DNA of 35,354 nucleotides from Escherichia coli (lineage in GTDB: Bacteria > Pseudomonadota > Gammaproteobacteria > Enterobacterales > Enterobacteriaceae): the NCBI RefSeq assembly GCF_003334355.1, contig NZ_QOWP01000035.1; one strand, given 5' to 3'. The position numbers and the translations under genes were made by a program. A model generated the notes under the pieces. The model made no database searches. It saw only the letters and a list, made by a program, of their open reading frames with translations, and had not been told where the DNA came from. Positions 9,334 through 24,652 of the stretch are shown here, in pieces (within the stretch, counting starts at the first letter, position 1; each line of letters begins with the position of its first letter).

Positions 9334-9503
9334 AATGGCTCACTCAAGCTTGCTCACGATTGATTCCAGTAACAAACCGTATTGTGTAATTATTTCTATA
9401 GCAGCTCGCTATATAGGCTTGTATACATCGAATAATTTGAAAATCAAAGAGATAGGTAGATTTTCACTCGAAAGTAGTATTACGTGTAAGTGAGGAGTAA
9501 TTA

Positions 9504-9517
9504 TTGTTCGGTATCAA
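9504..9517 (-). promoter_or_regulatory. FNR box of the dmsA promoter (TTGAT-N4-AACAA on minus strand)
   Basis: Plus strand ttgttcggtatcaa = minus TTGATaccgAACAA, close to the FNR consensus TTGAT-N4-ATCAA; about 170 bp upstream of dmsA ATG; dmsABC is a known FNR-activated anaerobic operon. Confidence 0.6.
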
Positions 9518-9525
9518 AGGGAGAC

Positions 9526-9551
9526 AAAAAAAGCGCCCGCAGGCGCTTTTT
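9526..9551 (-). terminator. Rho-independent terminator downstream of serS
   Basis: aagcgcc-cgca-ggcgctt hairpin flanked by A6 and T5; on the minus strand the hairpin is followed by a U-run, 21 bp after the serS stop. Confidence 0.75.
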
Positions 9552-9571
9552 AGATTCAGAAAAATTGGGTA

Positions 9572-13074: not shown

Positions 13075-16000
13075 TTAGTCAAACGGCGGTGGGGCCAGCA
13101 CTTCACGATTACCGTTGTGCCCCTGTTCGCTGACAATCCCCTGCGCTTCCATCTGTTCGATAATACGCGCTGCACGGTTATAACCAATGCGGAACTGACG
13201 CTGTACGCCAGAAATTGACGCTTTGCGTTTTTCAGTGACAAACTGCACCGCCTGATCGAACAACGGATCCAGTTCTTCAGCGCCATCGAAACCACCCGCA
13301 CCACCTTCGCTTTCGCTGTCGGAGGTGATGCCATCAACATACTGTGGGCGACCACGCGCTTTCCAGTCCTGCACCACGGCATGAACTTCCTGATCGCGAA
13401 CAAAAGCACCATGGACACGTACCGGCAACGTGGAGTTCGGCCCAGAGTAGAGCATATCCCCCATACCCAGCAGTGATTCCGCGCCAGCCTGATCAAGAAT
13501 GGTACGTGAGTCAATCTTACTGGATACGGTAAAGGCGATACGGGTCGGAATATTCGCTTTAATCAGACCAGTAATAACATCAACCGATGGACGCTGAGTT
13601 GCCAGTACGAGGTGGATACCCGCGGCACGGGCTTTTTGCGCCAGACGTGCTATCAGCTCTTCCACTTTTTTACCTACCGTCATCATCAGGTCGGCAAATT
13701 CGTCAACCAACACCACAATGTATGGTTCTTTTTTCAGCACCGGATGCTGGGCATCCATACTGTCACCCGGCTTCCAGTACGGGTCTGGAATCGGACGCAT
13801 CATGCGATCGGCTTCAGCAATTTTTTCGTTATAACCCGCCAGATTACGCACACCCAGCGCAGACATCAGTTTATACCGACGCTCCATCTCGTTAACACAC
13901 CAGCGCAGCGCGTTGGCGGCATCTTTCATATCAGTAACGACTTCCGTTAACAGGTGCGGAATGCCTTCATACACCGAAAGCTCCAGCATTTTCGGGTCGA
14001 TCATGATGAAACGCACATCTTCTGGCTGTGCTTTATAAAGCATGCTCAGGATCATCGCGTTCACACCGACAGATTTACCGGAACCGGTAGTCCCCGCAAC
14101 CAACAAGTGCGGCATTTTCGCCAGATCGGCAACCACCGGCTCACCGGCGATATCTTTACCCAGCACCACGGTTAATGGCGACGGATTATCGCGGAATTTG
14201 GCGTTATCCAAAACTTCGCGCAGATAAACGGTTTGTCGTTTTTTATTTGGTAACTCCAGACCTACATAGGGTTTGCCAGGAATAACTTCAACGACACGCA
14301 CCGCCACCGTCGAAAGTGAACGGGCAAGGTCCCGTGACAAGTTAGAAATGCGCGCCGCTTTTACGCCAGGAGCCAGGTTAAGTTCAAAGCGAGTGATAAC
14401 CGGCCCCGGAGAGTAATTGACGACATCGGCTTTAATACGGAAATCAGCCAGACGCGCTTCCACCAGACGAGCCATTTGTTCAAGCGCAAAGGTATCTACC
14501 GGCTCCACTTCGCTCGGCGGCGGTGTCAGCAAATCCAGAGAAGGCAGCGGCGTCGTCGGTTTATGCAACGGACGGCTGTCGCCATTACGCATCAACAGCG
14601 GATGAAGCAGGGTATCCTGCGGTTGTGGCGCAACTGGCTGTTGTGGCTGCTGATACTGCTGCTGCGGCGCAACCGGTTGTTGCGGCTGCTGATATTGCTG
14701 CTGTGGCGCAACCGGTTGTTGCGGCTGCTGATATTGTGGCTGCGGCGCAACCGGCTGTTGTGGCTGCTGATACTGCGGCTGCGGCGGAACTGGTTGTTGC
14801 GGCTGCTGATATTGCTGCTGCGGTGCAACCGGTTGTTGCGGCTGCTGTACAGGTTCAACAATTGGCGTAAACAACGGTTCGTGTGGACCATCATCCAGCA
14901 ACGCTTTCATTGGCGAAAATTCAAAATCATCCAGCGAGAACGGATTCGCCCCAGCCGGTTGTTCGCCGGAATAACGTTGTTGTTGAGTTTGCGCAAACTG
15001 ACGAGCCAGTTCAGCCTCTGCCGCAGCATCTGCATCTTCTGCGTTTACGGGCACATCATGTTGATACTGTTCGCCATAGCGTTGCTGCTGTGTCTGGGCG
15101 AACTGACGTGCCAGTTCATCCTGCTGCATCGCATCGATTTCATCATCGTTGTACTGATCGCCAGAATCGTACTGATTGCGCTGGGCTTCACGGGCTTTTT
15201 CTTCCGCCGCACGCTGTGAGGGCAGCTTAATACCGTAAGACGCCAGTTCACGACGAGTTGGCACGCGGATACGTTTCGGTCGTGGCAACTGCGGACCAAT
15301 CCCCTCTTTGACCTGAGGACGCGGTCCACCGCTATTTGCCAGACTGAAGACTGGCGCGGCAACGGTTGCGGCAGCCCCCGTCGCCAGTGTCGCTTTTTTC
15401 ACGCCAGATGCCAGCGGGGAAACAGCGGCAGCGGCTTCTACTGGAGGTACTGCTGCAACAGAAGGTGCTTTCAGCGAAGATTTGATCGGTTCTGGTTCTT
15501 TAACCGGTTCTGGAATCGGTTGATACCAGGCCGCAAGTTGTTCACGTTCACGGGCTCGCTTCTCTTCAACTTCTTCAAAGTAGTAAAGCGGCGGACGCGC
15601 GGGTTTTGTCTCTTCTACAACGGGTTCAGGCTCCACAACAGGCTGCTGTTCAACGGGTTGCGGCTGTTGGTACAACGGCTCCTGAGCGGCTGGCTGCTGA
15701 TAAGTTTGCTCAGTCTGGTATGTAGACTGTGGAGCAAAAGTGGATTGCTGCTCTTCGGCTTGCCAGGCGTTACCTGCCACCGGTTGTTCTGGCGCAGGGG
15801 CATAATACGGCTGTTGCGCAGGTTGTTCAGCTGCAGGTGCATAATACGGCTGCTGCGGCTGTACTGGTTGTTGCAGCGGCTCATTATATTGCACTGCAGG
15901 CTGCGCATATTGTGACTGCTGTGGGTAACCTTCCGGTGCAGGAGCAATAACCGGCTCTCCCGTTTGTGGACCCGGTACAGGCTGCCAGGCTACTGTAGGT

Positions 16001-17064
16001 TGCGCAGGTGGAACATCAACAGAGGCAACAGGCGGCGTCTGAGTCACAGGTTCAACCGGCGCAGCCCAGCTTTGTGTCGCCGTGGTAGCAGCAGCTGCTA
16101 CAGCGACAGGTTCGGTAATTGGCGCACCGTTTAATAATGGATCGTATTCGTCATATTCTGGCTGCGTTGCACGATTGCCCGAAAATAGGACGTCGTCCGG
16201 GTCGGCAGCCACACCGCGTGCAGTGTAGGTAATCTCTTCGTCATCATCCATCCGCTTACCGGAGAACAACGCAGCGTCTGTTTGCCGCCCCATCGGATTA
16301 ATGAATTTTTCCGCCAACCGTTTACGACGCGCTAGCGCGCCGCGAAGAATACGGGCACGGCGTGATTCATGCTGTTTGCCGTGATTTTCATCTTCATACT
16401 CTTCGTCGTCTTCATACTCATCTTCATCGACCCAGGTATCATCGCGACGGGTACGATTACTGGCGAAGGTGAGAATGTTTAAAATCCAGCCGCCGAGTTT
16501 TTCAGCAATGGTCACCCATGACCAACCGGTGAACAACGTCAGGCCCGCTGCCCAAACGCAGAGCAGCGCAATAGTTCCCCCGCTACTGTGTAGCAGTGGT
16601 TGTAGCGTAGTGCTTAGTAAGCTGCCAATGACGCCACCGGAGGCAAAATACCAGATATCGTCAGCGTTGATTGCCGCCAGACCACAGGAGGTAAGGATGA
16701 GCGCCAAAACGCCAATGATGCGTAGCGAAACGGCAAAATAATCAATGTATTCGTCGCTGGACTGATGACGCCAGGCAAACCAACAACCGCCGACAATAAT
16801 GACGGGAATGGTGTAAGCCATCACGCCAAAAATAAAGAACAGCGTATCTGCCAACCACGCACCGGGCATCCCACCTAAATTATGGATAGGTTCATGCCAG
16901 GCCGTTTGCGACCAGCTGGGGTCCGAAGGGTTAAAGCTTAGTAAGGCAGCCATCAACCAGACGGCAAACAGGACAATAAGGATCAGCAACGCCTCCAGAA
17001 GGCGGCGGCCGCTACTTAACTTTGTCAATGTGACTTCTTTGTCTTCAGTGTATTCCTGGCTCAA
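13075..17064 (-). CDS. ftsK: DNA translocase FtsK, 1329 aa
   Basis: ORF track; N-terminal membrane domain, long Pro/Gln-rich linker, C-terminal motor with Walker A GTTGSGKS; start codon TTG (plus caa at 17062-17064) with GGAGA SD. Confidence 0.95.
14617..14847 (-). repeat. In-frame 39-bp tandem repeat (about 5.5 copies) in the ftsK linker
   Basis: Plus-strand unit ggcgcaaccggttgttgcggctgctgatattgctgctgt repeats with few substitutions (copies starting 14627, 14666, 14705, 14744, 14783); encodes [10 protein letters not shown](P/Q)QY on the minus strand. Confidence 0.9.
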
Positions 17065-24316: not shown

Positions 24317-24404
24317 GGTGAGGTGTCCGAGTGGCTGAAGGAGCACGCCTGGAAAGTGTGTATACGGCAACGTATCGGGGGTTCGAATCCCCCCCTCACC
24401 GCCA
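24317..24404 (+). tRNA. serW: tRNA-Ser (anticodon GGA), 88 nt, class II with long variable arm
   Basis: GGTGAGGTGTCCGAGTGGCTGAAGGAGCACGCCTGGAAAGTGTGTATACGGCAACGTATCGGGGGTTCGAATCCCCCCCTCACCGCCA: 7-bp acceptor stem, anticodon loop CTGGAAA, T-loop GGTTCGAATCC, encoded CCA. Confidence 0.95.
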
Positions 24405-24447: not shown

Positions 24448-24652
24448 CATTTTATCTGTCTGTACGGCAGTGAACATGGTGGGTGGAGTATGTTACCTGT
24501 GAATTTCTAAGCTGCCTGTACGGCAGTGAACGCCAACTTTCACAGCCTTTGCAAGATTGTTCCTTTCTAAGCTGCCTGTACGGCAGTGAACGTTCGCTGC
24601 AACCGCTAGCCAAGACGGTAGGTTTTTCTAAGCTGCCTGTACGGCAGTGAAC
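24448..24652 (-). CRISPR. Orphan type I-F CRISPR array: 4 repeats (one degenerate), 3 spacers, no adjacent cas genes
   Basis: Perfect 28-bp repeats at 24504-24531, 24564-24591, 24625-24652 (plus strand TTTCTAAGCTGCCTGTACGGCAGTGAAC; minus strand GTTCACTGCCGTACAGGCAGCTTAGAAA, the I-F repeat with CTGCC/GGCAG hairpin); degenerate terminal repeat 24448-24475 keeps the 3' 16 nt; spacers 28, 32 and 33 bp; repeat orientation puts the leader on the clpA side. Confidence 0.9.

Follow-up and report, generated by a model that had tools for sequence, protein, structure and literature searches.

The window analysed here, a stretch of 35,354 nucleotides of Escherichia coli DNA, carries the gene ftsK, which encodes the DNA translocase FtsK. 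The coding sequence starts with TTG, matching the RefSeq annotation, and its product is covered over residues 1–1329 by the NCBIfam family NF007615 ("DNA translocase FtsK") with 3049 bits, the cut-off being 1566. The Pfam domains follow one another as FtsK_4TM (to aa 191), FtsK_alpha (aa 840–940), FtsK_SpoIIIE (aa 948–1161) and FtsK_gamma (aa 1264–1324). In the linker of about 650 residues between the first two (aa 192–839), searches of Pfam and NCBIfam found no domain or motif family. The four-domain architecture, the domain-free linker and the full-length match above the cut-off are those of the DNA translocase FtsK. In addition, positions 14300–15150 match E. coli ATCC 8739 with 100% and K-12 with 99.4% identity, both of which are annotated as ftsK in this region, and the RefSeq annotation of this identical or near-identical DNA agrees with the identification. 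The gene is flanked by lrp upstream and by lolA and rarA downstream, an arrangement as in E. coli. The gene and the parts of the linker treated in this work are the following:

13075–17064, minus strand: ftsK coding sequence, an open reading frame of 3,990 nt for the DNA translocase FtsK of 1329 aa.
14545–14613, minus strand: joining segment of 22 residues plus one (aa 818–840), from the end of array A at aa 817 to the start of FtsK_alpha as placed by Pfam.
14614–14847, minus strand: array A (VNTR CVN001 = ms07), six in-frame units of 39 nt, aa 740–817, established by TRF, a unit table, a chance control, the census of genomes and primer mapping.
15778–15855, minus strand: array B (VNTR ms06), two in-frame units of 39 nt, aa 404–429, reading QQPYYAPA(A/P)EQP(A/V), established by TRF, allele alignment, the census and primers.

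The linker contains 13.9% proline and 15.4% glutamine. A review describes the FtsK linker as unstructured, P/Q-rich and different in length between species (PMC5357621). The same review reports that its deletion or artificial truncation leads to filamentation and to impaired division and dimer resolution, and that portions of it contact FtsQ, FtsL, FtsI and FtsZ, so that the linker is not a purely passive spacer (PMC5357621).

Array A was detected by TRF at positions 14627–14847, with a period of 39, 5.7 copies, 88% matches, a score of 344 and no indels. When read in the ftsK frame, it resolves into exactly six units of 13 codons with the consensus tail (Q/P)QY, the sixth of which terminates in D, not Y. 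The units differ pairwise at 2–9 of 39 nt (77–95% identity), and of the 11 columns that vary, eight fall on third codon positions; in the protein, residue 8 of the unit is A or P, residue 11 is Q or P, and the terminal Y is replaced by D in the sixth unit. The original prediction had placed about 5.5 in-frame copies at 14617–14847, in the Pro/Gln-rich linker that connects membrane domain and motor. The frame, the unit table and the Pfam domains agree with this placement, which proved accurate to 3 nt and half a unit. As 22 residues separate the array from FtsK_alpha, it occupies the extreme C-terminal, motor-proximal end of the linker.

The periodicity of array A was compared with two kinds of control. 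At a lag of 39 nt, 170 of 195 comparisons match in the array, while codon-shuffled linkers gave a mean of 82 and a maximum of 91, and random codons drawn from the P/Q-rich composition of the array itself gave a mean of 128 (sd 4) and a maximum of 142. The periodicity is therefore not a by-product of P/Q-rich composition. TRF also offers an alternative reading with a period of 117, 1.9 copies and 94% matches. An ancestral duplication of a three-unit block, with this 117-nt period, is a weak candidate: the pairs of units i and i+3 are 2, 3 and 6 nt apart, yet a distance of just 2 nt also separates units 1 and 5, and units 4 and 5. The presence of a hidden RNA or of a gene in another frame across array A was rejected, since a search of ftsK against Rfam returned no match and the ftsK frame is intact and conserved; the long open reading frames that cover the array in other frames are by-products of the repeat inside that frame.

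In the protein, array B precedes array A by about 310 residues. TRF reported it at 15782–15857 with a score of 117, and its two units differ from each other at 7 nt. The looser second repeat that had been noticed around 15660–15960 is thus real, and it corresponds to a known VNTR.

To describe the variation of both arrays, 14 E. coli ftsK alleles were fetched across the similarity ranking and compared together with that of the window. Among these 15 alleles, FtsK ranges from 1303 to 1381 aa, and in the protein alignment all length differences are confined to arrays A and B, the remainder being collinear. Array A has 2, 5, 6, 7, 8 or 9 units in these alleles, some of which also present a partial unit of 5 or 8 residues or a one-residue deletion, and array B has 2, 3 or 4 units.

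A wider census was carried out with a query consisting only of the 200 nt on each side of the array, the array length being obtained by subtracting 400 from the matched span. This flank-only query was preferred because the BLAST spans of a query with the array plus its flanks were ambiguous, with about 1,500 genomes aligning only from the array onward. The search set comprised 5,426 complete E. coli genomes, which yielded 5,427 matching records, and 60 records evenly spaced down the ranking were examined. Array A presented 7 copies in 27 records, 6 copies in 21, 8 copies in four, 6 copies plus 15 nt in three, 9 copies in two, and 2 copies, 5 copies and a length of 270 nt in one record each; these frequencies are not population estimates, as a small number of clones predominate in the sample. 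The eight lengths seen in the 60 records (78, 195, 234, 249, 270, 273, 312 and 351 nt) are each divisible by three. For array B, alleles of 2, 3 and 4 copies account for about one third of the census each.

The linker length is therefore a strain-variable character, as the original prediction had proposed: with 2–9 copies of array A among 60 records, and with the corresponding range of FtsK lengths, the copy number is clearly not invariant. On the other hand, it is stable within clones, since all sampled genomes of the K-12 derivatives have 6 copies, and all those of O157:H7 and of ST131 have 7. A contingency or phase-variable locus does not fit this behaviour, because the 39-nt unit keeps the frame and no change in copy number was seen within K-12, within O157:H7 or among the sampled ST131 genomes.

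Both arrays are already known, being published MLVA typing loci: array A is CVN001, also named ms07, and array B is ms06. They have been routine markers for typing E. coli and Shigella since 2007–2008, and the Salmonella counterpart is older. CVN001 is said to belong to the generic E. coli MLVA of Lindstedt et al. 2007, and ms07 and ms06 reportedly come from Gorge et al. 2008. The identification was made by mapping the published primers, which fall at the following sites, all of them exact matches:

14516–14546, plus strand: reverse-primer sites of CVN001 (14516–14535 and 14525–14546) and of ms07 (14521–14540), on the motor side of array A.
14942–14962, minus strand: forward-primer site of CVN001 (14942–14960/62), on the membrane-domain side of array A.
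15088–15107: forward-primer site of ms07, farther out than that of CVN001.
15665–15684 and 15946–15965: primer sites of ms06, which bracket array B.

The primer sequences were taken from PMC8143711, PMC11773471 and PMC8215070. Each of the CVN001 and ms07 primers has a single, exact match in the window, and scans with the CVN001 primer patterns gave 0 matches in 100 shuffles. CVN001 has been placed in ftsK (PMC11773471), and ms07 has been equated with CVN001 (PMC4553163). The primer flanks, the head-to-tail units of 39 bp and the strain-variable copy number of array A are all those of this VNTR. The ms06 amplicon predicted from the window has 301 bp, equal to the smallest published size.

The published alleles agree with the lengths found in genomes. 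Reported ranges are 1–12 for ms07 and 2, 3 and 4 for ms06 (PMC8215070). In Swedish ESBL-producing isolates, CVN001 alleles 4, 5, 6, 7 and 8 occurred at 1, 40, 40, 13 and 5%, respectively, and all ST131 isolates carried allele 6 (PMC5217547). A further list of ST131 profiles shows allele 6 in nearly all of them, with single profiles having 2 or 5 (PMC3407997). The CVN001 formula, (size − 250)/39, assigns 5 to the 445-bp amplicon of the window, one below the six units of the protein; since it counts one unit fewer, the published allele 6 of ST131 is equivalent to the 7 units counted here.

These typing data bear directly on whether the copy variation could be an artefact of assembly, produced by the collapse or expansion of the arrays in short-read data. 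The arrays do disturb assemblies, as the original prediction had cautioned: among 80 loci from related species, the contig or stored sequence stops at or inside the linker arrays in five drafts, in array A in L023, L024 and L073 and in the array-B region in L031 and L040, and the complete genome L052 has a premature stop, a probable frameshift, directly after a linker array. The census, however, was limited to assemblies at the level of complete genome, the lengths are constant within clones and all in frame, and the alleles differ in the sequence of their units besides their number. In addition, PCR sizing in independent MLVA studies recovered the same allele range and clone-specific values, as for ST131. 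As these PCR-based alleles agree with the counts derived from genomes, an artefact is effectively refuted.

The age of the units was examined by assigning one letter to each distinct 39-nt unit of array A and by comparing synonymous differences, the clock being the fraction of codons for the same amino acid that differ, calibrated on the motor domain (the last 500 codons). Many unit types recur in distant lineages of E. coli, not always at the same position, and the window and K-12 have the identical unit string, ABCDEF. The fractions obtained were the following:

Units within one E. coli array: 0.21–0.31.
Motor domain between E. coli strains: 0.014–0.062.
Motor domain between E. coli and the cryptic Escherichia lineages: 0.12–0.31.
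Motor domain between E. coli and E. albertii: 0.37.
Motor domain between E. coli and Citrobacter, Klebsiella, Enterobacter and Lelliottia: 0.41–0.49.

The differences between units are thus 4- to 15-fold above the divergence among strains. Together with the unit types common to distant lineages, this indicates that most units of array A predate the divergence of E. coli strains. One fresh event was seen, an exact tandem duplication of two units (78 nt) that distinguishes the allele of PEC165 (GSGSTIUJV, L001) from that of A8 (GSTIUJV, L003).

The comparison was extended to the 80 Enterobacteriaceae ftsK loci of a scan with one genome per species, a set in which Salmonella is absent. Outside E. 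coli, the units were taken as Tyr/Phe-delimited windows of 13 residues, since the TLLHPLL anchor is not conserved there. An array at the equivalent position is found in Escherichia, Citrobacter and Lelliottia, with units of 39 nt, and in Kosakonia, with units of 42 nt. No equivalent of array A was found among these loci in E. albertii, Klebsiella and several Enterobacter, lineages in which it was lost or never acquired, and some lineages bear other repeat units elsewhere in the linker. The length of FtsK across the Enterobacteriaceae varies from 1181 to 1393 aa.

From one genus to another, the unit sequences are not conserved, and they differ by 6–15 nt per 39. Within an array, the mean distance is 1.3–5.2 nt per 39, with the exception of the two-unit array of E. 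whittamii (7.0). Each species has a variant of its own fixed in all units; for example, Escherichia sp. MOD1 presents its own signature, C. werkmanii and C. youngae present QQPAQPVAPQQHY, and Lelliottia presents AQPQQPVA(V/A)PPQY. The nearest neighbour of a unit belongs solely to the same species in 59 of 77 cases. These three patterns, namely distances within arrays below those between genera, fixed species signatures and nearest neighbours from the same species, show concerted evolution. The units are younger than the array itself, and have been homogenised on the timescale of genera. The description of the repeats as near-perfect and recently expanded was therefore overstated, as the units are 2–9 nt apart and mostly older than the strains, although a recent duplication does occur in one allele; the suggested homogenisation holds between species and genera.

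Then, we propose that array A is a coding minisatellite within a disordered spacer, in which slippage or unequal exchange lets the length of the spacer drift in a nearly neutral manner, and we give this reading a probability of roughly 85%. The array would form a presumably disordered Pro/Gln-rich stretch of the linker that tethers the hexameric DNA pump to its membrane anchor at the septum. Because the unit has 39 nt, the gain or loss of whole units preserves the reading frame. Such changes probably arise by replication slippage or by unequal sister-strand exchange between units that are 77–95% identical, sometimes in blocks of two units, and the two processes are indistinguishable from sequence alone. 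The spacer appears to be tolerant of many lengths, so that alleles could drift and become fixed in clones. Drift and fixation together would generate both the polymorphism across the species and the stability within clones that make CVN001/ms07 usable as a typing marker, and turnover in the longer term would homogenise the units within each species.

The near-neutrality of copy number within the natural range is an assumption in this proposal, since no functional measurement of E. coli ftsK copy-number variants was found in the accessible literature. Against it, the counts cluster at 6–7 and the extremes are rare, with 2 copies in one and 9 copies in two of the 60 records. This clustering could reflect stabilising selection, rather than drift and shared ancestry.

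The same clustering is one of the observations that suit a functionally tuned copy number, in which the pump's reach or timing relative to the closing septum depends on how long the motor-proximal linker is, with optima specific to lineages and possible compensation between arrays A and B. In favour of tuning, several genera retain an array at this site although its sequence has turned over completely, which suggests that something about the segment is maintained, and artificial truncations of the linker affect division and dimer resolution (PMC5357621). The copies of A and B are also weakly negatively correlated in the 15 alleles (r = −0.33), but this value falls short of significance, in alleles that are phylogenetically non-independent, and is therefore no basis for compensation between the arrays. 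Moreover, the natural range is wide, with 2–9 copies here and 1–12 published for ms07 (PMC8215070), the total length of FtsK varies by some 200 residues in the Enterobacteriaceae, and E. albertii, Klebsiella and several Enterobacter do without an equivalent of array A. In addition, when a 28-aa indel of the ftsK repeat was swapped between two S. Enteritidis strains, survival in egg white, the one phenotype tested, was unchanged (PMC6137255). Tuning is thus regarded as unlikely.

Another possibility is that the units of array A act as interaction modules, with regularly spaced tyrosines in a P/Q background serving as multivalent "stickers" for divisome partners or for the clustering of FtsK, and with copy number as valency. 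A tyrosine ends every full unit, 37 of 43 linker arrays of other Enterobacteriaceae contain roughly one aromatic residue per unit or more, irrespective of how long the unit is, and regions of the linker are reported to contact FtsQ, FtsL, FtsI and FtsZ (PMC5357621). However, the unit sequences differ between genera and the region matches no domain or motif family. Furthermore, aromatic residues make up 7.1% of the linker overall, which predicts about 0.9 per 13 residues; one tyrosine per unit is thus the background of the linker, and an enrichment of aromatic "stickers" was rejected. We consider such modules very unlikely. Quite unlikely, too, is a broader conception in which the two arrays would be a "length dial" with lineage-specific settings (FtsK of 1303–1381 aa) that alters the coupling of septum closure to chromosome clearance or dimer resolution, or in which the evenly spaced tyrosines would make array A an interaction module of tunable valency for divisome partners.

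The two arrays have some modest practical consequences. Their value as a discovery is small, as both are long-known MLVA markers, and nothing suggests a large phenotypic effect of the natural variation in linker length. On the other hand, differences in the annotated length of ftsK, in steps of 13 residues at two sites, are genuine, and short reads from enterobacteria tend to give assemblies that break at the linker arrays. The locus also provides a clean natural case of a coding minisatellite, in a housekeeping protein of cell division, whose units evolve in concert.

Regarding known systems, the repeat of tolA (CVN004) resembles array A in that it is in-frame, variable in copy number, located in an extended, linker-like domain of a cell-envelope/division protein and part of the same MLVA scheme. 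For tolA, copy-number variants have been constructed and shown to alter stress tolerance (PMC3477136). In the literature examined, no counterpart of this experiment was found for ftsK. The corresponding marker in Salmonella enterica is known under two names, STTR7, which is said to be due to Lindstedt, and SENTR2, reportedly introduced by Malorny et al. 2008. Both names denote one 39-bp repeat of ftsK, with 9.3 copies in S. Enteritidis (PMC2430564). STTR7/SENTR2 and array A are thus both in-frame 39-bp ftsK repeats employed in MLVA, the orthology of their position and units resting on those papers. Within the linker of E. coli, array B differs from array A in its unit and in its narrower copy range, and it is the same locus as ms06, the published alleles 2, 3 and 4 being those of the census. 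Finally, CVN001/ms07 and array A are the same locus, with the same 39-bp repeat in the same gene bracketed by the same primers, and biologically there is no difference between them.

The FtsK linker of E. coli carries a second variable array besides the six-unit array A (MLVA locus CVN001/ms07), located in the window as follows.

15778–15855, minus strand: array B, the second 39-nt array, with a 13-residue unit

This array is the MLVA locus ms06, already published. Among the 60 sampled E. coli genomes it was present in 2, 3 or 4 copies, each number in about one third of them, and its polymorphism equals that of array A. Together, arrays A and B account for all the FtsK length differences seen, which range from 1303 to 1381 aa.

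An alternative TRF reading of array A (window 14627–14847) gives a 117-nt, three-unit period with 1.9 copies and 94% matches, and the unit pairs 1/4 and 2/5 differ by only 2–3 nt. This pattern hints at an old duplication of a three-unit block, for which the evidence is weak, since other unit pairs of the array are equally close.

The linker also contains a duplicated motif, immediately upstream of array A.

About 14960–15110, minus strand: two occurrences of a 14-residue motif (FtsK aa about 653–701)

The two copies are spaced by 35 residues, and their number was constant in the 15 E. coli alleles compared. A Citrobacter genome (L023) and an unclassified, metagenome-assembled genome of the Proteobacteria (L049) likewise carry the motif in duplicate within their ftsK fragments. 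Judged from these sequences, it looks like a conserved functional motif, unlike the drifting arrays.

Array A is absent from the ftsK of Escherichia albertii (L017), and is therefore missing in a close relative of E. coli. The E. albertii gene presents an array B of 3.3 copies and, at aa 766–778, a run of 11 alanines detected by TRF as a 6-nt-period repeat. Seven loci of Klebsiella, Raoultella and Enterobacter (L027–L029, L033, L035, L048 and L055) lack the 13-residue array A and have a different repeat in the array-B region of the linker, with 4–7 copies of a 24-residue unit, e.g. YQPEQAPVQQPVYQPEPSYPQHQA. In Kluyvera sichuanensis (L093), this same region holds a 39-nt unit repeated 9.2 times.

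Linker arrays also coincide with sequence ends: 5 of the 80 ftsK loci (L023, L024, L073, L031 and L040) are cut off exactly at or inside them, where either the contig or the stored sequence stops. All five come from Citrobacter and Raoultella draft assemblies. The ftsK frame of Leclercia adecarboxylata NCTC13032 (L052), a chromosome-level assembly, stops at residue 497 (region aa 393–497), shortly after a 15-nt-period linker array of 17 copies. The probable cause of this early end is a frameshift introduced within the repeat by sequencing or assembly; a true truncation of the gene is less likely.

Other elements were located elsewhere in the window.

9424–9558, plus strand: STnc130, an enterobacterial sRNA family (RF02084)
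24317–24401, plus strand: tRNA gene
24504–24652, minus strand: three CRISPR-DR4 repeats of 28 nt (Rfam RF01317, 50 bits each)

The three CRISPR-DR4 repeats, at a spacing of 60–61 nt, make up a very short CRISPR array that adjoins the tRNA gene. The STnc130 match is full-length, with 140 bits against a gathering score of 55.
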